From Nitratidesulfovibrio vulgaris str. Hildenborough (lineage in GTDB: Bacteria; Desulfobacterota; Desulfovibrionia; Desulfovibrionales; Desulfovibrionaceae), in the NCBI RefSeq assembly GCF_000195755.1, contig NC_002937.3:2940001-2972000 (forward strand): a stretch of DNA of 32,000 nucleotides, read 5' to 3'. The notes beneath the pieces were generated by a model that was given only the letters and a program-made list of their open reading frames with translations, was not told the origin of the DNA and made no database searches. This document shows, piece after piece, positions 1,168-9,770 of this stretch (position 1 is its first letter; each line of letters begins with the position of its first letter). Made by a program: the position numbers and the translations under genes.

Positions 1168-2241
1168 ATGGACTTTCGCGAGCGCATCTACACCTTGGCG
1201 GCCCGGATCGCAGAACTGCGCGCCCACACCATCACGGAAGAGGCAACCAAGAACGCCCTTATTCTCCCCTTCCTGCAAGCCCTTGGCTATGACACCTTCG
1301 ACCCGCGCGTGGTCATCCCCGAGTTCACCGCAGATGTGGGAACGAAGAAGGGTGAGCGAGTGGACTACGCCGTCATCCGCGACGGTCAGCCGGTCATGCT
1401 GATAGAAGCCAAGTGCTGCGGTGCTCCGCTCGACGCTGGCAAAGCAAGCCAACTGCTCCGATACTTCCACACGACACATAGTGCTCGCATCGGCATCCTC
1501 ACCGACGGCGTCGTGTACCAGTTCTTCTCAGACCTCGACCAGCCCAACGTCATGGACCAGAAGCCGTTCATGACCTTCGACTTCGCCGCCATCGAGGACG
1601 CCCTCATCCCTGAGCTGAAGAAGCTAGCCAACGATCGCTTCGACATCGAGGCGACCCTCTCCGCCGCGCAAGATTTGAAGCACATCCGCCAGTTGAAGAA
1701 GAAGGTCGCGGACGAATTCGCGACCCCTTCCGACGACCTCGTCCGTTACTTCGCCAAGGATGTGCACCACGGACAGTTCAGGGCCAACGTCGTTGAAGAC
1801 TATCGTGAGAAGCTCAAGCTCGCCTTCCAGCACCACATCAACGACATCATCAATGAACGGCTCCAGACCGCAATGCAGGGCAACGCTTACCCCGAACCCT
1901 TCGAGAAGCCGGAAGAAGAACAGGCCAAGCCCGTGGAGAAGGTCGTAGAGACGACTCAGGAAGAATGGGAAGCCTTCTACGCCATCAAGTCCATCCTGCG
2001 TGATGTGATTGCGCCTGAACGCATCTTCATGCGTGACGCCCAGAGCTACTGCGCCATCCTTCTGGATGACAACAACCGTAAGCCCATCTGCAGACTGCAC
2101 TTCAACGGCAAACAAAAGTACATCGGTCTATTCGACGAGAATAAGAAAGAGACTCGTCACCCAGTGGATGGCGTTGATGGATTGTATGCCTTTACAGAGG
2201 GATTACGAGAAGGGGCTGGGCGACACGATGACACTATTTGA
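1168..2241 (+). CDS. HsdR-N-terminal-type PD-(D/E)xK nuclease domain protein with uncharacterised C-terminal half
   Basis: RBS GGGAGA lies upstream of the ATG. The N-terminus EEATKNALILPFLQALGYD...PEF...ERVDYAV...PVMLIEAK...IGILTDGVVYQFF matches the type I restriction enzyme R N-terminal (HSDR_N_2-like) E/D/ExK nuclease core. Residues from about 130 to 357 are unassigned. Confidence 0.75.
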   Translation: MDFRERIYTLAARIAELRAHTITEEATKNALILPFLQALGYDTFDPRVVIPEFTADVGTKKGERVDYAVIRDGQPVMLIEAKCCGAPLDAGKASQLLRYFHTTHSARIGILTDGVVYQFFSDLDQPNVMDQKPFMTFDFAAIEDALIPELKKLANDRFDIEATLSAAQDLKHIRQLKKKVADEFATPSDDLVRYFAKDVHHGQFRANVVEDYREKLKLAFQHHINDIINERLQTAMQGNAYPEPFEKPEEEQAKPVEKVVETTQEEWEAFYAIKSILRDVIAPERIFMRDAQSYCAILLDDNNRKPICRLHFNGKQKYIGLFDENKKETRHPVDGVDGLYAFTEGLREGAGRHDDTI

Positions 2242-2312
2242 CATCGGGCTACAAGAGAGGCTCATGTCGCCTATTCTCTAAACAACTAATTGTATCAAAA
2301 GAGGGAAATGGT

Positions 2313-3650
2313 GTGGTCAAAACTGTTAATTGGCGAGACTTACTTGAGCCTCAGACAAAAATACGAGACCCACTTTACGGCTATATTTGGGTTACCGACG
2401 ATGAACTTCAGATCATTGATACCCCCATTTTTCAGCGTCTTCGCCGAGTAAACCAACTTGCACTGACAAAATATGTATATCCAACGGCTGAGCATTCACG
2501 CTTTGTGCATTCCCTCGGAGCAATGCATTGTGCGACACAAATCTTTACAGGAATCTTAAATAATACACATTCGTATCATGGCATACGAGCTATAGATTCA
2601 GCTAATATGCTTAGACGATTACGGTATGCTGCACTTTTACATGACATTGGCCATATCGCATTTTCGCATGCAGCAGAGAAGCTTATTCTTAACCCTTTGC
2701 AACATGAACATCTAGGGCAATTCATCATTGCCAATTATTCTCCTATATCTTCTATTCTCGGAGAGCACATCAAACCTGTCATAAGCATTTTGGCTGACAG
2801 CGTTACCCAAGACAACAGGCTGCTCCATCAAATCATATCGGGCCATCTTGATGCAGACAGAGCAGACTATCTCATGCGCGATTCGCATGCCTGCGGAGTC
2901 AAATACGGAGAATATGATTTTGAGCGCTACATGCAGGCATTCGGGGCTATAAACGAATCCAATGAGCTAAAACTGTTTGTCCACGAGCGCGACATATTCG
3001 TTATCGAATCATTTCTCGTAGCTAGACATCACTATAACATGCAAGTTCCTTACCATAGGACACGAATGGGGTACGACATTATTCTTGGTCGATTCCTTAA
3101 AGAATTTCTACCCAAGTGCGATGATGCCAAATTAGGCCTAACGGTTGAGGAAGGAGCATACACAAAGGTTGACCTTCAAAAATTTGAATTTTTTGATGAC
3201 TACTCCGTTTTCAACCACATCAAGCACGAGGCTCGTACGGGCAATCTCTGGGCAAACATGCTACTCCGCCAAGGACACCTATGCCCTGTCTACGACACGA
3301 CAGACTCTGTTGATCGGGGAGGAAAAGTTTTCAAAAAAATTATTCGCCGGCTTAAAGCGAAAAACTTCGTCGAAGATGATGACTTTTTCCAATGCCGCAA
3401 AGAGATCACGGCATCGAAGCTAATATCTACGGATGAAAAGGAAAATTCACTCGCTGACACAAGCCGAGAGACCATTTATGTGCGCACCAAGAGTGGAAAG
3501 CTCGTTGACATTGTCAAGCACTCGAATATTGTGCGCGCCCTACGCCCGGTGACAATCTACAGGATTTATACTAGTCAGAAACGTAAGTCCGAAGCTGAAG
3601 CGGTAATAGCCGATGTCTGCCGCAAGACTCAGGTCGACAGGAGGGGATAA
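2313..3650 (+). CDS. SAMHD1/EF1143-type HD-domain phosphohydrolase (putative dNTP triphosphohydrolase)
   Basis: The H...HD...D signature is present: RFVHSLGAMH, AALLHDIGHIAFSH, GHLDADRADYLMRDSHACGVKYG. The N-terminus reads IRDPLYGYIWV...IFQRLRRVNQL. GTG 2313 has AGAGGGA 6 nt upstream. The track start at 2238 is a TTG overlapping the upstream stop (TTGA) and remains an alternative. Confidence 0.85.
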   Translation: MVKTVNWRDLLEPQTKIRDPLYGYIWVTDDELQIIDTPIFQRLRRVNQLALTKYVYPTAEHSRFVHSLGAMHCATQIFTGILNNTHSYHGIRAIDSANMLRRLRYAALLHDIGHIAFSHAAEKLILNPLQHEHLGQFIIANYSPISSILGEHIKPVISILADSVTQDNRLLHQIISGHLDADRADYLMRDSHACGVKYGEYDFERYMQAFGAINESNELKLFVHERDIFVIESFLVARHHYNMQVPYHRTRMGYDIILGRFLKEFLPKCDDAKLGLTVEEGAYTKVDLQKFEFFDDYSVFNHIKHEARTGNLWANMLLRQGHLCPVYDTTDSVDRGGKVFKKIIRRLKAKNFVEDDDFFQCRKEITASKLISTDEKENSLADTSRETIYVRTKSGKLVDIVKHSNIVRALRPVTIYRIYTSQKRKSEAEAVIADVCRKTQVDRRG

Positions 3651-4175
3651 ATGGCTGACCAAAATGAAGCAATCGTTTGCGAAATGCTACGAGCGATGCA
3701 AGCGAAAGGTGTAGAATTAACCAAGATAAACCTCCAGAAGACAGCTTTTTTCCTCAAATCTTGGGGCGTATCACACGGCTTGCGCTTTAAACCTTACACA
3801 TACGGCCCCTATTCGAAAGACTTAGCCAAGCTACTAGACGACTTGACATTCTGGGACAGCCTCAAACTTGACACTAAAACCACCTACAGCATCGTGGATC
3901 TACCTGAGCATCAACTCAGCGAGCAAGATGCAACACGAATCAGAAATTGTGTTGACGCTCTCTATGACAACATAGCAGGGTCACGAAATCCTGATTTCAA
4001 TGAAATGGAAGTACTAGGAACTGTCCTCTACTGCCGCAACGCTCTTCTCGTTGCAGGTGAGGAGCCGACCGAGCCTGAGGTTATTAATCAGTTCAAGGCG
4101 TGGAAGGGGCAGGCCTATACCGACGAGCGCATTGCTGACGCCCTCAGACGAATAGAAAACAACATTCCTCAGTAA
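3651..4175 (+). CDS. small DUF4065/Panacea (SocA/GepA)-like protein
   Basis: The ATG immediately follows the HD-gene stop TAA (3648-3650), and AGGAGGGG lies inside the last HD codons. INLQKTAFFLKSWGVSHGLRFKPYTYGPYSKDLAKLLDDL resembles the DUF4065 core (KLQKLLY...W.yGPv...Y). The gene itself is solid; the family assignment is tentative. Confidence 0.5.
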   Translation: MADQNEAIVCEMLRAMQAKGVELTKINLQKTAFFLKSWGVSHGLRFKPYTYGPYSKDLAKLLDDLTFWDSLKLDTKTTYSIVDLPEHQLSEQDATRIRNCVDALYDNIAGSRNPDFNEMEVLGTVLYCRNALLVAGEEPTEPEVINQFKAWKGQAYTDERIADALRRIENNIPQ

Positions 4176-4200
4176 AACGAAGACTTTTACTTAACATTAT

Positions 4201-4236
4201 GAAAACGGCATCCCATCACACCGGGGTGCCGTTTTC
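4201..4236. terminator. bidirectional hairpin terminator between convergent genes
   Basis: GAAAACGGCATCCC / 8-nt loop / GGGGTGCCGTTTTC forms a 14-bp stem with one G-U pair. U-rich runs flank it on both strands. It sits between the stop at 4175 (+) and the stop at 4284 (-). Confidence 0.7.
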
Positions 4237-4283
4237 ATTCTTGACGGTCAGACAAATAGAAAAGTCAAAAAGCCATCAGGAAA

Positions 4284-4985
4284 TCATGTCGCGTTCCCGC
4301 CCCCCCCTTTCCGACCCCGCACATGGTATGCATAGCCTTCGTCCCCTTGAAATTTTTCAAGAAACTCATATTTATATTTGCAACGTTCTAATGCTACGTA
4401 CCCCCCCACAATGATGGCGAAGCCAGGAATGAGAAAGATGAGTTTATCAAAAGGAAAAGCAATATTTTTACAGTCCTGAGGATCCGACAGAACACTAAAT
4501 GATATACATAAATATGAAACAAGCCAAACAGCAGCAACCACTAAGCTCACCACCTGATTGATTTTGGATACAGAGTAGGGGGCACATTCAAGATGTCCCT
4601 TCGCATCATCCTGCCTGATTACTACCTGATACAACTTGCCATGCACATCGCCTTCCACAAGATCTACATGGGCCTCCCAGTTTTCTTGCCAGAATTTGCT
4701 TCCCTGCGAGCTACGAAACCAAGCCCAAGAAAGAACAAACCCAAGCCCACACACCAACAGCTTGAACCAGTCTGGATGCGGATATTTAGGATTCATGCTA
4801 GCGATAAGAGCTGCCCCAATTGTTGCAGTGAATCCCCAGAAATATATAGCTCGCTTCCAGTATAACTCTATTTCGAACTCTCGAGTTGCCCACGATCTTT
4901 CAAGCAACTTCTTTTTTAGCTCACGGTCAGAATCATCGTTCTCTTCAAGGCAACAGTCCTTCTTTATCACATCTAAATACTTCAT
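4284..4985 (-). CDS. four-TM membrane protein, unknown family
   Basis: Four hydrophobic helices: AIYFWGFTATIGAALIASM, WFKLLVCGLGFVLSWAWF, VVSLVVAAVWLVSYLCISFSVL and LIFLIPGFAIIVGGYVAL. The N-terminus is acidic and charged. The ATG (4985-4983) shares one nucleotide with the EcoRII-like stop (TAATG). The gene is AT-rich. Confidence 0.8.
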   Translation of the reverse strand: MKYLDVIKKDCCLEENDDSDRELKKKLLERSWATREFEIELYWKRAIYFWGFTATIGAALIASMNPKYPHPDWFKLLVCGLGFVLSWAWFRSSQGSKFWQENWEAHVDLVEGDVHGKLYQVVIRQDDAKGHLECAPYSVSKINQVVSLVVAAVWLVSYLCISFSVLSDPQDCKNIAFPFDKLIFLIPGFAIIVGGYVALERCKYKYEFLEKFQGDEGYAYHVRGRKGGGGNAT

Positions 4986-6184
4986 TAGCTACTCCACAAA
5001 TTGGCTTGAGCCATTCCTACGAACTCTCCAAGAGAAATCAGCTCTTCACGCTGTGCATCCTGAAACGAAGACTGAATCCCTCGCGGGATAACAAGCTGTA
5101 CCGCGTGATCGACCATTTCAGTCGTCTGTTGCACACTTATTCCGGGTTCAAGTGTCAGAAGATGCTTGCGGCTTACGCGGGCGGCTTCAGCCAGCACCTG
5201 CCTCCAGCGATCCTTGCAGGTTGATTTGACAGCCAGCATGCGAAGCTGGTCCTGTGGAAAATTCGTCTGGTGATACTCGCTACACCCAGGAAAAATGAAG
5301 TCGGGCTTTGAATTGTTCTCGGTGCGGCACTCCCGCGTGTAGGGTACGCCCCAGTCCTTGAGCACCTGCTCGACATGATTCTCCAGCGCCTTACCCGCCC
5401 TGGCCTTTCGTCGATTGAGCACGCTCAGGGCATACCCCGTAAAAGCGTCCACATCCTCGCCAAACCCTTCTCTTAGCCGTTGGGCAACCAGATGCCGTTC
5501 AAACATCCGGAACAGTCTCTCCTCCTGTTCGAACCACGCCACGAGAGCACCATCCGGATCATCTAGCGAACTGACATGAGGGAGTGAGTCGCGGGCATAC
5601 GTTGAAAATACGGCTGTAGGGGGAAAAGCAGAACCAAAGGTAGACAGCAGGTGTTCCAGTTGACCATCATCACCGGCAGCCGCAATTTCCACTCCCAATT
5701 CTTCAAGGATGTAGCTTCCGGCAAAACCGATGTCCTGCTCAAGCAACTCAGGCGAAGCAACCGCGTAGCCGCCATCTGCAGCGGGAGAAAGACCAAACAG
5801 CCAAGATAGCTGGCTTTCACCCGTGGTCCCCGCTGCTCCGATGATCACCAGCATGGAGCCATCCTCGCGTAGTCCGAAGACAATCATGTCTCCCTCGCGG
5901 GCCTCGGTCATGACTTCACAGGGTGGGAAGTACAGGCGATATTCCGTCCGTGTAGCATGGCGTTCCCTTGCATCATACCACGTAAGGGAGCCATCACAGG
6001 CGAGAGGCGACTCGTCGTCACCCAGAAGGATGAAGCGGGCAGCCAGGGTTCTCCGGTCATCCCCCAGCATATTGCGAAGCGCAGCCACACCATTGAACTC
6101 ATGCTGGTTCGATCGGGCAGGTTCGGCTTCCACGGCCCGCAAACGCTTGGCGGCCACGCAAAGAAACAGATCTGACAAACGCAT
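4985..6184 (-). CDS. type IIE restriction endonuclease, EcoRII family
   Basis: The N-terminus has SNQHEFNG (EcoRII-N effector domain). The C-terminus reads RRKARAGKALENHVEQ...KPDFIFPG...LAVKSTCKDRWRQVLAEA...KHLLTLEPGISVQQTTEM (EcoRII-C catalytic domain). At 399 aa it is full length. Confidence 0.9.
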   Translation of the reverse strand: MRLSDLFLCVAAKRLRAVEAEPARSNQHEFNGVAALRNMLGDDRRTLAARFILLGDDESPLACDGSLTWYDARERHATRTEYRLYFPPCEVMTEAREGDMIVFGLREDGSMLVIIGAAGTTGESQLSWLFGLSPAADGGYAVASPELLEQDIGFAGSYILEELGVEIAAAGDDGQLEHLLSTFGSAFPPTAVFSTYARDSLPHVSSLDDPDGALVAWFEQEERLFRMFERHLVAQRLREGFGEDVDAFTGYALSVLNRRKARAGKALENHVEQVLKDWGVPYTRECRTENNSKPDFIFPGCSEYHQTNFPQDQLRMLAVKSTCKDRWRQVLAEAARVSRKHLLTLEPGISVQQTTEMVDHAVQLVIPRGIQSSFQDAQREELISLGEFVGMAQANLWSS

Positions 6185-6323
6185 ACCGTAACCATCAGTT
6201 GTTAAAGACTTATCTTACACTCGCTATTGGGTTACGATACAAACCTGAATCATGCAACTACAGAGATCGCCTCCCATCTGAGTGCTTTTCTTGTTGCGAG
6301 CTATGCCGTAAGAGCCTTCCCAT

Positions 6324-7400
6324 ATGACTTCCCAACTGTCTTTTTCCTTCATCGACCTGTTTGCTGGCATTGGCGGCATAAGGCTAGGCTTCGAAGCTGC
6401 AGGGGGCCGTTGTGTCATGTCGGCCGAATACGACAAGTATGCCCAGAAAACCTATCGGGCCTTCTTTGGTGAATCGCCCGATTTCTCAGAAATCATGTCT
6501 GTTTCGCCTCCTGGCGATATCACTAAGCTACCTCCGCACCTTGTACCAGATCACGACGTGCTTACCGGCGGCTTTCCCTGTCAGCCGTTCTCTCTGGCAG
6601 GCGTATCAAAGAAGCAGTCACTAGGCCGACCTCACGGCTTCGACGACCCCACGCAGGGAACCCTCTTCTTCAACGTGAAGGAGATCATCAAGAGCAAGCG
6701 GCCCAAGGCCTTCATGCTTGAGAACGTCAAGAATCTGTGTAGCCACGATTCCGGGCGAACGTTCCGTGTCATCCGGGAGTCTCTTGAGGGACTCGGCTAC
6801 AGGATGCACTACCGTGTCATTGATGCCCGTGACTGGATTCCCCAGCATCGGGAACGTATCTTCATGGTCGGCTTTCGCCTGCCGGAGGCTTGCCCTGCTG
6901 GCGCGCAGAAATGGGATGTGAAGGATTTCGACTTTGGGAAGGTCTCCAGGCGGGGGTCCCAGAAAGACCTTGAAAGCGTGATCGAGCCGGACGTGCCTGA
7001 AAAATACACACTGGGACCGGGAACGTGGAATACCCTGGTGAGGCACAAAGCTAATCACGCGGCCAAGGGCCAGGGCTTTGGCTACGGCATGATCACCCCC
7101 CCCTTCGCAGGACAGACGACTCGCACTCTCTCTGCCCGTTACCATAAGGACGGGGCAGAGATTCTTGTTGCCCAGCCGGACAGGCCGCGGCCTAGACGCC
7201 TGACCCCCCTGGAGTGTTGTAGACTGATGGGTTTTCCGAAGGAGTGCCAGCGCTGGTTTGACAGAAGGGATGAGGCGCATCCGCAGCCAGTCTCTGACTG
7301 TCAGGCCTACAGACAGTTCGGGAATTCGGTCGCCGTTCCAGTTGTGAAGGCCATTGCCCGGGCAATGGCAGAAGCCTTGAAGCGCAACGGTGCCATCTGA
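6324..7400 (+). CDS. dcm: DNA (cytosine-5)-methyltransferase, Dcm-like
   Basis: m5C methyltransferase motifs are present: FIDLFAGIGG (I), GGFPCQPFSLAG (IV), ENVKNL (VI), QHRERIFMVG (VIII), QFGNSV (X). It is divergent from the EcoRII-like gene and is followed by vsr. Confidence 0.95.
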   Translation: MTSQLSFSFIDLFAGIGGIRLGFEAAGGRCVMSAEYDKYAQKTYRAFFGESPDFSEIMSVSPPGDITKLPPHLVPDHDVLTGGFPCQPFSLAGVSKKQSLGRPHGFDDPTQGTLFFNVKEIIKSKRPKAFMLENVKNLCSHDSGRTFRVIRESLEGLGYRMHYRVIDARDWIPQHRERIFMVGFRLPEACPAGAQKWDVKDFDFGKVSRRGSQKDLESVIEPDVPEKYTLGPGTWNTLVRHKANHAAKGQGFGYGMITPPFAGQTTRTLSARYHKDGAEILVAQPDRPRPRRLTPLECCRLMGFPKECQRWFDRRDEAHPQPVSDCQAYRQFGNSVAVPVVKAIARAMAEALKRNGAI

Positions 7401-7408
7401 CAATCACC

Positions 7409-7819
7409 ATGGCGGACATCGTTGACAGCGCAACGCGCAGCCGGATGATGTCCGGCATAAAGGGGCGCAACACAAAACCGGAAAGACTTGTCCGGTCGTA
7501 TCTTCATGCAGCGGGGTTTCGCTTCAGACTCCATCGCAAGGATCTCCCCGGCTGCCCGGACATCGTACTCCCACGCTACAGGGCTATCATTTTTGTTCAC
7601 GGATGCTTCTGGCATCGCCATGAAGGCTGCAATCTTGCTTCCTTCCCGGCAACAAGAGTCGACTTCTGGGAAAGCAAATTTGCCGCCAATGTGGAGAGAG
7701 ACCGCAGAAATGAAACAGCTCTTGCCGAGGCTGGCTGGCGGGTCATCATTATCTGGGAATGCCAGATCAGGGCAGGAGAACTCTCCTGGCTGCCAGACGC
7801 AATCACGGGACAGGGATAA
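7409..7819 (+). CDS. vsr: very short patch repair endonuclease
   Basis: RSRMMSGIKGRNTKPERLVRSYLHAAGFRFRLH...LPGCPDIVLPRYRAIIFVHGCFWHRHEGC...FW..KF..N..RD...GWRVIIIWEC is the Vsr family signature. It starts 8 nt after dcm. Confidence 0.95.
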   Translation: MADIVDSATRSRMMSGIKGRNTKPERLVRSYLHAAGFRFRLHRKDLPGCPDIVLPRYRAIIFVHGCFWHRHEGCNLASFPATRVDFWESKFAANVERDRRNETALAEAGWRVIIIWECQIRAGELSWLPDAITGQG

Positions 7820-7835
7820 CCGGCAGGGAGGAGCC

Positions 7836-8699
7836 ATGCTTAAAATCGTGGGCTATCACAAGCGGACATGGCCTTTCGGCCCCGCAACCCTCCAGGAGGC
7901 AGCTGCCCACTTTGATGTCAAAGGTCTTTCGGTAGCAGGCTCTTACAGCCTTCATACAGAATATGCTGCAGGTTGTCGGCAATTCAGGAACACGGCCCTG
8001 AATGCCTTGGGTGCCATCACGGCAGCACACCAGCGAGGTATCCCGCAACTCTGGAAAAGCAAGGAGTGGGCAAACCAGTTCGCAGCCTTTGTGATTGAGT
8101 TGACCCAAGAAGCCATGCCTCCCGAAGTGATCGAGATCCACCCCCCCTTCAATGATTACTGCCCTTCATTCAGTGACCTTATCTTGCGTTACAAAGCGTT
8201 TGAGTCTGAAATTGCAAGAGTGTATCCCTCCAGCCTGATCGTAATCGAGAATCGTCATGGCACGCGCTACACCGGTGGCAAATTTCTTGTTAGCCGCCGT
8301 GAAGATTTGCTGGCGCTGACAGACCTGCTTGACGCAACAGACCTTTCGCTCAATCTTTGCCTTGATGTCCCGCAGCTCTTCTCCGCCCATTTCGGCCCTG
8401 CCCCACGGACCGAAGACGACATCGACAGGGTACTCACCCCTCTCATGGAGTGCCGCCACCGCATCACCTCGGTTCACATGTGGGGCAAGAAACGGAACAA
8501 GCGAGGGGGCATGCAGGCCCACTATGGCACGCTGGATACATGGCTCGGCCCAGAGCTGAAACGGCACTTGCTGCGACGCCTGCACGAACTTCTGGACGAT
8601 GACAGGACTCGCTATTTCGTGCCTGAGGTCAACGGCAGCCAGAGCGATATGGACGCCCTAGCAAAGGACATGATCGAAGCCGGCTTCACCTTCTGCTGA
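7836..8699 (+). CDS. xylose-isomerase-like / endonuclease IV-like TIM-barrel protein
   Basis: ATG 7836 is preceded by GGGAGGAG. The upstream part of track ORF 7488..8699 overlaps vsr and is rejected. Strand-end motifs EIHPPF, VIENRHG, LCLDVPQLF, SVHMWG, QAHYGTLD and FVPEVNG fall in the order of the metal-ligand motifs of the AP endonuclease 2 (Nfo/UvdE/xylose isomerase-like) fold. One His is replaced by Gln. Confidence 0.6.
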   Translation: MLKIVGYHKRTWPFGPATLQEAAAHFDVKGLSVAGSYSLHTEYAAGCRQFRNTALNALGAITAAHQRGIPQLWKSKEWANQFAAFVIELTQEAMPPEVIEIHPPFNDYCPSFSDLILRYKAFESEIARVYPSSLIVIENRHGTRYTGGKFLVSRREDLLALTDLLDATDLSLNLCLDVPQLFSAHFGPAPRTEDDIDRVLTPLMECRHRITSVHMWGKKRNKRGGMQAHYGTLDTWLGPELKRHLLRRLHELLDDDRTRYFVPEVNGSQSDMDALAKDMIEAGFTFC

Positions 8700-8706
8700 C
8701 CACACC

Positions 8707-9135
8707 ATGGACATGAAAGACCACTCGAAGGAATGCATCTTCTGCGCCCTGCAGCACTCCCCGCACATGGTGCGCGAGAACGCCACCTGCTACGCCATCC
8801 GCGACAAGTATGCAGTGACAGAGGGGCATCTACTCATCATCCCCAAGCGCCACACCGAAGACTACTTCAGCCTGACGCAGGCCGAAAAACGCGACGCCGA
8901 CGCCCTGTTGCGCGAACTGCGCGATGAACTGGCCAGTGCCGATGCCTCGATCAGCGGCTTCAATGTCGGTGTGAACTGTGGCGAGGATGCCGGACAGACG
9001 ATCTTTCACGCCCACATACATCTCATTCCCAGACGCAAAGGCGACACGCCCGACCCACGCGGTGGCGTGCGGGGCGTCATCCCCCACCGCATGGCCTACC
9101 CATCACCACCACTCACAAAAAACACTGTCATTTAA
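8707..9135 (+). CDS. HIT-family nucleotide hydrolase/transferase
   Basis: CIFC...GHLLIIPKRH...NCGEDAGQTIFHAHIHLIPRRKGD..DPRGGVRGVI contains the histidine triad HxHxHxx. It starts 7 nt after the TIM-barrel gene. Confidence 0.9.
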   Translation: MDMKDHSKECIFCALQHSPHMVRENATCYAIRDKYAVTEGHLLIIPKRHTEDYFSLTQAEKRDADALLRELRDELASADASISGFNVGVNCGEDAGQTIFHAHIHLIPRRKGDTPDPRGGVRGVIPHRMAYPSPPLTKNTVI

Positions 9136-9440
9136 GGGAAGTGACAAAGATATGCATAGGCTCCATATCTAAAGGGAGGAAAACATGGCAGCAGCTAGCA
9201 CCTGACGCCATGCCCACTAGACATGGAGGCAGCATGCATTTCACCAAAGGCGACATGGTGTTTTTGTGGCAAATTGTATCCGCTTTCGTCATGTGGCGCT
9301 TGTCGCGTTTTTAGCGCGCTCGCCAGCAGAGGCTCAACGGAAACCGACGGCTACTTCAGGCACGGTTCGGCGGATCCCCCCAACGACCAGCGCAGCCAGA
9401 AAAGACATAGAGTGCTACTATGCAGCAGTTGGTACTGCCC

Positions 9441-9770
9441 TTACCCCGCCGGCCGCACATACCGGCCCTGCCGCACCTCTATGTTGCCGTGGGCCAGCAA
9501 CGCACGCACGCTACGCGGCTGCTGGCCCTTGCGGACGTCCAGTTGCAGGATGAGCAGCCTGCGCCACATCTCGGCGATGTACTCGCACTTGCGGCGCTCT
9601 CCGGGTACGACACGCCGCCAGTAGCGCAGATAGATGTAGGGCGTTCCGTCGGGCTTGCGGTGCAGGCACGGCGTACAGCCAAGGCTGAAGAGCCTCTTGT
9701 GGGGGTCGAACGGTTCACGCATGAAGGCATCATAGCGCGGAACGTCGCCCCCCAGTAGAGGCCATAGCAA
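9441..9770 (-). CDS. hypothetical protein (Cys-x2-Cys ... PYIYLRYWRR motif)
   Basis: The frame has G/C-rich third codon positions and lies directly downstream of the fibre chaperone. The track start is a TTG with a weak RBS; ATG 9722 is the alternative. GCTPCLHRKPDGTPYIYLRYWRR is reminiscent of small CxxC..GPYWY-type proteins found on mobile elements. Confidence 0.45.
   Translation of the reverse strand: MLWPLLGGDVPRYDAFMREPFDPHKRLFSLGCTPCLHRKPDGTPYIYLRYWRRVVPGERRKCEYIAEMWRRLLILQLDVRKGQQPRSVRALLAHGNIEVRQGRYVRPAG

Follow-up and report, generated by a model that had tools for sequence, protein, structure and literature searches.

A TIM-barrel and histidine-triad gene pair in a prophage cargo hotspot of Nitratidesulfovibrio vulgaris, probably independent of the very-short-patch repair gene that precedes it

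In Nitratidesulfovibrio vulgaris str. Hildenborough, four genes follow one another so closely that they could be taken for one functional unit: dcm, for a C5 cytosine methyltransferase, vsr, for the very-short-patch repair endonuclease, and then one gene for a TIM-barrel protein (hereafter TIM) and one for a histidine-triad (HIT) protein. They lie in the 32,000-nt stretch of DNA analysed here (the window; contig NC_002937.3, positions 2,940,001 to 2,972,000), and the question they raise is whether the last two genes serve the repair function of the first two or form a unit of their own. An earlier reading made from the letters alone (the sequence-only reading) had offered both answers, an extended very-short-patch repair module and an independent nuclease and nucleotide-hydrolase pair hitch-hiking on the operon. 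Our comparison makes it highly probable that TIM-HIT is independent of very-short-patch repair; the second answer is thus favoured as regards independence, while the label nuclease is something that we infer. A fuller, composite reading, which we hold to be moderately probable, is that TIM-HIT is an autonomous mobile two-gene module of a phosphodiesterase of endonuclease IV (Endo IV) descent and a nucleotide-conjugate hydrolase, active in defence or mobile-element conflict. The databases and literature searched hold no description of the TIM family, of the TIM-plus-HIT pair, of the DUF2797 systems discussed below or of the four-gene arrangement, in line with the last point of the sequence-only reading.

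The genes concerned, with the restriction endonuclease gene that precedes them, are as follows.

4985..6184, minus strand: EcoRII-C-type restriction endonuclease, divergent from dcm (PF09019, E 3e-78)
6324..7400, plus strand: dcm, C5 cytosine methyltransferase (PF00145, E 5e-79; PADLOC MTase_II, E 3e-129)
7409..7819, plus strand: vsr, very-short-patch repair endonuclease, last gene of the restriction-modification cassette (PF03852, E 1e-29; TIGR00632, 152 bits, E 6e-45)
7825..7833, plus strand: Shine-Dalgarno-like AGGGAGGAG ahead of the TIM ATG, within the 16-nt vsr-TIM spacer (read from the sequence)
7836..8699, plus strand: TIM gene, 287 aa, predicted xylose-isomerase-like TIM barrel (AlphaFold2 and Foldseek)
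8707..9135, plus strand: HIT gene, 142 aa, predicted Hint/Fhit-type histidine-triad nucleotide hydrolase (PF01230, E 1.2e-17)

Because the EcoRII-C gene lies upstream of dcm and diverges from it, positions 4985-7819 make up a complete restriction-modification (R-M) and Vsr cassette. Open reading frames and sequence give intergenic gaps of exactly 8, 16 and 7 nt between the four plus-strand genes, the values that had been reported for them, and the TIM start codon is the ATG at 7836; a 403-aa open reading frame from a TTG at 7488 is an in-frame upstream extension of the TIM gene that overlaps vsr, and was set aside as an artefact. The claim that no terminator occurs until after HIT is half right: a terminator scan returned 9 sites where 8.7 are expected by chance, none of them convincing inside the four genes, and 3' of HIT there is no canonical terminator, just a hairpin over the stop codon without a U tract. 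In a simple promoter scan, whose sites overall were at chance level, no promoter-like site fell between one inside vsr (7422-7449) and the TIM start. Co-transcription of vsr and TIM is therefore likely in the window, where the four genes are probably one transcript with TIM-HIT read through from vsr. The four-gene block is real and stable: the assembly collection has 221 blocks indexed with an identical HIT protein, and gene order is the same at the places shown.

The block sits in a region whose gene content changes from relative to relative.

2231..9442, no strand: variable cargo region of the prophage hotspot, GC 44-58%, between an HSDR_N-like gene and Mu-like tail-fibre and baseplate genes

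The GC content of the cargo (~2.2-9.4 kb) compares with 63-72% in the adjoining tail, baseplate and tail-fibre genes, which are Mu-like (Gp44/45/46/48, Baseplate_J); the gene on the left flank (1168-2241) has an HSDR_N nuclease-like domain (E 1.6e-11). Two metagenomic contigs aligned with blastn share parts of this arrangement. L081 has both flanks (window positions 1449-2230 and 9443-9732) at 94-95% and the dcm-vsr-TIM-HIT block (6340-9083) at 97.6% nucleotide identity, with the HD, DarG-like, 8xMP and EcoRII-C genes of the window replaced by genes for an SNF2 helicase, an EcoRII-N-only protein and a HATPase_c_3 protein, and with a SinI R-M system added 3' of HIT. L086 matches the window over the right flank and, at 90.7%, over HIT and the 3' half of TIM; its TIM-HIT stands not behind vsr but behind a DUF4268 gene (E 4e-17), and beyond the pair come other cargo genes and HicAB. 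Between these contigs the cargo is swapped module by module inside conserved hotspot flanks.

What an extended very-short-patch repair would look like is readily stated: after Vsr has nicked 5' of the mismatched T, TIM would clean 3' ends or apurinic/apyrimidinic (AP) sites and HIT would remove the 5'-AMP of abortive ligation, so that an R-M cassette would carry its own complete damage-control pathway. The tight 8/16/7-nt packing with its probable single transcript speaks for such a pathway, as do the 97.6% identity of the four-gene block in L081 despite a different restriction partner and cargo, the Endo-IV-like fold of TIM, and C5 methyltransferases near TIM in two other lineages. The distribution of the genes argues the other way. 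The comparison covered 80 species-representative loci (L001-L080), 16 viral contigs and one plasmid, together with the surroundings of the closest homologs. Among 103 loci, vsr adjoins TIM in one lineage only, that of the window and its 99% copy L081; the order vsr, TIM and HIT, for which the sequence-only reading had suggested mining gene neighbourhoods, is confined to these two among the loci compared. TIM-HIT occurs without dcm or vsr in L086, in the same hotspot; in Oleidesulfovibrio alaskensis (L082), where a P2-like prophage carries the pair by itself, set off by a 268-nt gap, with OLD-TOPRIM and UvrD (Gabija-like) genes and a faint Abi_2 match on one side and terminase and capsid genes on the other; and in Bacilli. 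The sequence-only reading had named a TIM-HIT pair outside any methylation or repair context as a finding that would speak against the repair idea, and these loci are of that kind.

The cassette, for its part, is found without the pair. The trio in the window is the classical one of E. coli dcm-vsr and EcoRII-type cassettes, restriction endonuclease, C5 methyltransferase and Vsr, with dcm and vsr 8 nt apart, and the same trio recurs in a metagenome-assembled genome of Pseudodesulfovibrio (L120), whose Vsr is the closest found outside the lineage (66%). That EcoRII-C/Dcm/Vsr cassette, the sole related one examined outside the lineage, ends at vsr: a convergent gene follows, and there is no TIM-HIT. 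The additional two genes of the window are an insertion, observed in this lineage alone. With the pair found without dcm-vsr and the cassette found without the pair, the two are separable both ways; the families also differ in size, with >7,800 Vsr clusters and ~460 TIM proteins. Two further points count against the repair pathway, namely that HIT is of Hint/Fhit type and not of aprataxin type, and that the third Endo IV metal site is degenerate in TIM. We therefore consider extended very-short-patch repair improbable.

The link between TIM and HIT holds over a wider range. In all close relatives with readable flanks, the gene immediately downstream of TIM is HIT, at a distance of 7 nt or with an overlap (at least 54% identity, five lineages: L081 at 99%, L086 at 69%, L085 at 54%, L082/L091 at 54%, and L088). 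The linkage reappears in two further, distant clades of the TIM tree, one represented by L010, a Bacteroidales locus with the order TIM-HNH-HIT, the other by the Bacilli loci L024, L026, L034, L037, L043, L046 and L080. In the window, TIM-HIT would have inserted itself into the cargo hotspot of a Mu/P2-like prophage, right behind an EcoRII-C/Dcm/Vsr cassette that is complete. The comparative data indicate that modules independent of each other can be packed in prophage hotspots as closely as the genes of an operon, and it would be wrong to read a single repair pathway from the four genes.

What kind of protein, then, is TIM? The window protein has no match among Pfam (E <= 0.1), NCBIfam, PADLOC or PHROG models, and neither phmmer with the single sequence nor a profile search gave a usable match among PDB sequences. 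Its family comprises 459 homologs, nearly all 285-300 aa long; a source name is attached to few of them, and there it reads hypothetical. A profile search of 1.84 billion representatives returned 417 TIM clusters at 50% identity and nothing beyond the family itself, and it brought up no sequences that would link TIM to Endo IV, UvdE or the isomerases; since this full hidden Markov model scan yielded just 417 clusters, TIM proteins form a small family that stands apart in sequence space. Its members are nonetheless strongly constrained, with 36 positions invariant over 52 aligned sequences from bacteria and archaea that are 37-70% identical.

Structure prediction gives TIM a place. The AlphaFold2 model (pLDDT 96.6, pTM 0.93) has as its top Foldseek matches the Endo IV structures 4hno, 2x7v (T. 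maritima), 6ki3 (African swine fever virus, ASFV) and 4k1g (E. coli), at E 5e-7 to 4e-6, with a TM-score of ~0.5 and 13-16% identity; rhamnose and xylose isomerases score ~tenfold weaker. The search against PDB gave 113 matches at E <= 1e-3, and the best 50 of the 113 are nearly all Endo IV enzymes or sugar isomerases. In the viral structure library BFVD, the model matches viral AP endonuclease 2 models, in agreement with the PDB result, and PF01261 is weakly matched by 6 of the 52 relatives (best E 1e-5), although the window protein itself does not reach its gathering score. Judged from the model, TIM is a member of the xylose-isomerase-like TIM barrel superfamily (PF01261 clan), with Endo IV enzymes as its nearest, distant structural relatives. 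The fold that the sequence-only reading had proposed, AP-endonuclease-2/xylose-isomerase-like, is thus borne out by model, Foldseek and viral library alike; of its proposed Foldseek comparison with Nfo and sugar isomerases, it can be said that Endo IV came first, at a TM-score of only ~0.5 and with isomerases only about tenfold behind.

The active site points in the same direction and shows where TIM departs from Endo IV. All six motifs quoted in the sequence-only reading (EIHPP, IENRHG, LDVPQLF, SVHMWG, QAHYG and VPEVNG) are found in the TIM translation, and on the evidence of sequence conservation they are not due to chance: none of the 52 aligned homologs departs from H102, E138, D177, H214, H229 or E264. 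The ligands of the Endo IV site are, as we take them from Nfo structures, H69, H109, E145, D179, H182, H216, D229, H231 and E261. Alignment of TIM with E. coli Nfo by hhalign falls short of significance as a whole (E 0.048, probability 1%, 117 aligned columns), but it puts four ligand positions in register, pairing EIHPP with NFHPG, VIENR with VIENT, LDVPQ with IDTCH and SVHMW with GMHLN. In addition, the TIM spacings of 36, 3, 34 and 15 equal those of Nfo H109-E145, D179-H182, H182-H216 and H216-H231. From identical spacing and alignment together it follows that six of the nine Nfo ligands are conserved, and invariant in the TIM family, with the correspondences (Nfo/TIM) H109/H102, E145/E138, D179/D177, H216/H214, H231/H229 and E261/E264, the last by spacing.

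The remaining three ligands are lost: H69 is replaced by Q, K, R, M or L, H182 by Q (Q180 in TIM, kept in 50/52) and D229 by V, I or Q. The change from D..H to D..Q that had been noticed in the window protein is therefore family-wide. With H69, H182 and D229 replaced, the trinuclear site cannot equal that of Endo IV; the nine-ligand site is absent and TIM falls outside Endo IV in the strict sense, so that the motifs, read earlier as metal ligands, do align with Nfo positions but do not make an Endo IV. The core E-D-H-E metal site that is universal to the superfamily (E138, D177, H214, E264) is present. To it the family adds invariant residues of its own, H40, E42, E100, N139, R140, D255, R259 and D271, along with K218 in 51/52, and H40 and E42 sit in an N-terminal beta insert that Endo IV lacks. 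Compared with E. coli Nfo, T. maritima Endo IV, the ASFV AP endonuclease and Apn1, TIM therefore shares the barrel fold, the best Foldseek matches and six ligands; it differs in the extra N-terminal insert, in the three replaced ligands, in having no profile-level PDB match, and in being found in mobile-element cargo, not as a housekeeping gene. We place it, as a predicted new family, on the Endo IV side of the superfamily with a different second or third metal site. Given six of nine ligands, and Foldseek scores barely better for Endo IV than for sugar isomerases, a nuclease activity of TIM is our inference from fold and site.

A precedent for caution comes from CbiR, which belongs to the AP endonuclease 2 superfamily, acts as a cobamide-remodelling phosphodiesterase, is oxygen-sensitive and hydrolyses the cobamide nucleotide loop (PMC7733943). 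By its description, CbiR resembles TIM in being a divergent enzyme of the PF01261 superfamily in which His, Asp and Glu metal ligands are conserved (PMC7733943); it differs in occurring in cobamide biosynthesis loci, whereas no cob or cbi gene is among the top neighbour families of TIM loci. Since CbiR hydrolyses a nucleotide-type phosphodiester outside DNA, a nuclease is not to be read from the TIM fold alone. One alternative, accordingly, is small-molecule chemistry, in which TIM would be a CbiR-like phosphodiesterase or a sugar isomerase, epimerase or dehydratase acting on ribose or a nucleotide-sugar and not a DNA cutter, while HIT, and elsewhere MazG-like, NUDIX or SAM (S-adenosylmethionine) methyltransferase proteins, would deal with the nucleotide portion; what the pair produces or breaks down would then be a modified nucleotide or a signal, possibly in defence or counter-defence. 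We think this rather unlikely. In its favour are the closeness of sugar isomerases to Endo IV in Foldseek scores and the example of CbiR, a PF01261 member active on a small-molecule nucleotide loop and oxygen-sensitive, beside the fact that nearly all TIM hosts are anaerobes. The partners of TIM are also mostly nucleotide-pyrophosphate enzymes, as in the Bacilli cluster with its DUF2797, HIT-like, TIM, HIT and MazG-like genes; there is a MazG-like-TIM fusion (P0244), and NUDIX and class I methyltransferase neighbours occur, with one TIM-methyltransferase fusion (P0333) read by eye. The extra histidines H102 and H229, kept at Endo IV spacing (36, 3, 34, 15), argue against it, and we know of no counterparts of these two residues in sugar isomerases or epimerases. 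Nuclease partners recur as well, with HNH_4 at six loci, EEP fused to TIM, and HNH and GIY-YIG fused to HIT homologs, and no kinase, glycosyltransferase or transporter recurs beside TIM.

The HIT protein is easier to name and less specific. The HAHIHLIP triad is intact in the translation, as had been reported, and the PF01230 score is 64.7 bits against a cutoff of 21.5; other matches are phrog_19494 (E 6e-32) and PADLOC ThsC2 (E 1.3e-9). Its 38 PDB matches (best E 1.2e-15) are headed by generic prokaryotic HIT proteins, NitFhit and an Ap4A phosphorylase, and the protein reads as a generic Hint/Fhit-type nucleotide hydrolase. The analogy with aprataxin that the repair idea had drawn on is not supported: the two have in common histidine-triad chemistry on a nucleoside-monophosphate conjugate, but the window HIT is 142 aa long, without zinc finger or DNA-binding extension, and aprataxin is named in 0 of the 38 PDB matches. 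Close HIT homologs are fused to HNH (P0125, P0212 and P0238; PF01844/PF14279) and in one case to GIY-YIG (P0203; PF01541), so that the combination of HIT plus nuclease recurs independently of the TIM family.

Within defence systems, the nearest counterpart is ThsC, the HIT-domain accessory gene of PADLOC "Thoeris type II" (PMC8565338). ThsC is likewise a small HIT protein alongside a defence system, and the window HIT matches its ThsC2 model as given above, but it is equally similar to generic HIT hydrolases. Thoeris itself was considered on the strength of that match and rejected, as no ThsA or ThsB model matched among the eight island proteins scanned. TIM-HIT belongs to no system of PADLOC-DB v2, the ThsC2 match of HIT being the only one. 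The MADS system was another candidate. Its mad2, mad3 and mad8 models match TIM neighbours, the mad2 match being a ~200-aa protein in the methyltransferase position, but no window protein matches any mad model, and the MADS reading was therefore dropped; the Bacilli-cluster proteins match no mad model either.

Across the wider family, TIM keeps changing company. Outside the HIT-linked loci its neighbourhoods are highly variable: HNH_4 proteins are operon neighbours in six loci, in four of them followed by a class I methyltransferase, and further partners are AbiH, GajA-, PtuA/B- and AriA-like ATPases or nucleases, an SLFN-type helicase, a DpnII-MboI restriction endonuclease, helix-turn-helix control proteins of R-M systems (C-proteins) and NUDIX. 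In Bacilli/CAG, a six-gene cluster (e.g., L026 5609-9628) consists of genes for DUF2797, a 220-aa GalT/DUF4931-like HIT, a 261-aa protein, TIM, HIT and a MazG-like protein; it is conserved in L024, L026, L037, L046 and L080, and apart from HIT its proteins have no match in PADLOC. DUF2797 is also the commonest fusion partner of TIM (L054, L055, L064, P0246, P0250, P0253 and P0262). Its AlphaFold2 model is of medium quality (pLDDT 68.6) and has a beta-beta-alpha-beta-alpha core with the motif Y..Y..KVGT..R..E, which we take to be merely reminiscent of GIY-YIG/T5orf172 nucleases, as a lead. Other fusions join TIM to a C-terminal EEP (Exo III-type) domain (P0284), which brings both AP-endonuclease folds into one protein, to an N-terminal MazG-like domain (P0244), and to a likely C-terminal class I SAM-methyltransferase motif (P0333). 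A 285-aa N-terminal domain fused to TIM is shared by P0299, P0336 and P0345; neither it nor the C-terminal extensions of P0248, P0272 and P0311 belong to a recognisable family. By its pattern of neighbours, TIM would be a modular conflict gene that works on nucleic acids or nucleotides, a pattern that fits DNA incision and small-molecule chemistry alike.

The carriers are in part mobile. Members of the family were found on 16 IMG/VR viral contigs, at the late-region end of a Butyrivibrio prophage and in an integrase-bearing island with DUF1156/DUF499; among plasmids the one match is the Thermococcus plasmid pTBMP1, where TIM lies beside DUF2357 and toxin-antitoxin genes in an island that also has an ADP-ribosylglycohydrolase gene. 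A search of 50,697 GenBank phage genomes gave no match. Going by record titles, nearly all hosts are strict anaerobes, including gut and rumen Clostridia, methanogens, Thermococci, Asgard archaea, sulfate reducers, Deferribacteres and Thermotogae; this bias may reflect sampling, or it may reflect an oxygen-sensitive metal centre as in CbiR.

Such carriers bring up another alternative, prophage self-protection or counter-defence, in which the pair would not attack foreign DNA but would reverse lesions that the host or a rival makes on phage DNA, such as AP sites left by base-excision restriction enzymes, or nucleotidylated or ADP-ribosylated ends. Prophages and viral contigs do carry the pair or its family, and both enzymes have a repair-type fold or chemistry. 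AP-site-creating glycosylase-type restriction systems have been reported (PMC10273834). The ADP-ribosylglycohydrolase gene of the pTBMP1 island and a DarG-C-like gene in the window can be read in the same sense. The neighbouring hotspot cargo, in contrast, is overwhelmingly of defence type (R-M, Gabija-like, Abi, toxin-antitoxin), the absence of matches in the phage genomes argues against a role in lytic infection, and such lesions are without direct evidence. We regard self-protection as quite unlikely.

It is the locations of the pair and of the wider family that make defence or mobile-element conflict the most likely role of TIM-HIT, over housekeeping repair. In the mechanism that we propose for the autonomous module, TIM would be a phosphodiesterase that depends on metal and cleaves a sugar-adjacent phosphodiester, whether in DNA or in an adduct linked to a nucleotide, and HIT would remove or turn over a nucleoside-monophosphate conjugate that this pathway makes or exposes. 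More tentatively, and on the doubtful side of our estimates, the TIM family with its interchangeable HIT, HNH, EEP, DUF2797 and MazG partners could be a new class of prophage and island immune modules, with an Endo-IV-like enzyme of remodelled, possibly oxygen-sensitive metal centre as effector or sensor; this enzyme would cut into invading DNA where unusual nucleotides occur, or would cleave a nucleotide adduct, and HIT would handle the nucleotidyl product. If TIM is a defence effector, the AP-endonuclease-2 fold joins the repair folds that have been co-opted for immunity, for which the inactive Endo III domain of END nucleases is a precedent (PMC12191111), and HIT accessory genes such as ThsC gain a function. 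If it acts on a small nucleotide, the superfamily gains another new reaction, like that of CbiR.

Several observations weigh against an autonomous defence module. In species representatives, about 85% of the TIM loci lack a neighbouring HIT, which is therefore not an obligate partner. The HIT subfamily is very large (>6,398 proteins at E < 1e-10), relatives ~60% identical are found in ordinary chromosomal contexts, and the TIM-linked HITs of related loci, at 59-64% identity to the window HIT, are no closer to it than >100 other HITs. TIM matches no PADLOC defence model, sugar isomerases follow Endo IV at only ~tenfold weaker Foldseek scores, and partners such as MazG, NUDIX, HIT and methyltransferases would also be in keeping with nucleotide chemistry on small molecules. 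As for autonomy, the 16-nt spacer of the window with no promoter found ahead of TIM ties TIM-HIT expression to vsr, and L081 kept all four genes while other cargo changed, which leaves room for a lineage-specific functional link between TIM-HIT and dcm-vsr. C5 methyltransferases also occur near TIM in two more lineages (L098 and L101-L102), a weak hint that the family tends to adjoin DNA-methylation genes, although this could also reflect just islands rich in R-M systems. The genes in question (L098 7148-9287, L101 8865-10334 and L102 2922-4875) lie less than ~1 kb from distant TIM homologs on viral contigs without vsr.

The rest of the cargo in the window falls into modules of its own.

2238-4175, plus strand: HD-domain protein (470 aa; phrog_35128, E 4e-34), then a 174-aa protein, stop and start abutting at 3650/3651
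4199-4238, no strand: 16-nt inverted repeat (94% complementary, loop of 8 nt) in the interval where the DarG-like and 8xMP genes converge
4284-4985, minus strand: 8xMP "octameric membrane protein" gene, its start at the end of the EcoRII-C gene with a 1-nt overlap

No RNA families or tRNAs were found within the window. The HD-domain protein has weak dGTPase-like matches, and the 174-aa protein matches PADLOC DarG (E 2e-15) over model positions 163-327 of 329, the C-terminal part, without the macrodomain; together the HD and DarG-C-like genes look like a separate two-gene cargo module. The 8xMP gene is placed as if co-transcribed with the EcoRII-C gene, and the inverted repeat is probably a bidirectional terminator that separates the two cargo modules. 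Another 8xMP gene (L085 9175-9828) has a TIM-HIT pair and an R-M system of a different kind in its vicinity. In L081 (3548-6401), dcm-vsr is accompanied by a stand-alone EcoRII-N (effector DNA-binding) protein, a HATPase_c_3 protein, a 270-aa protein and an SNF2 helicase, a set that may be an alternative restriction module reading the same methylation mark.

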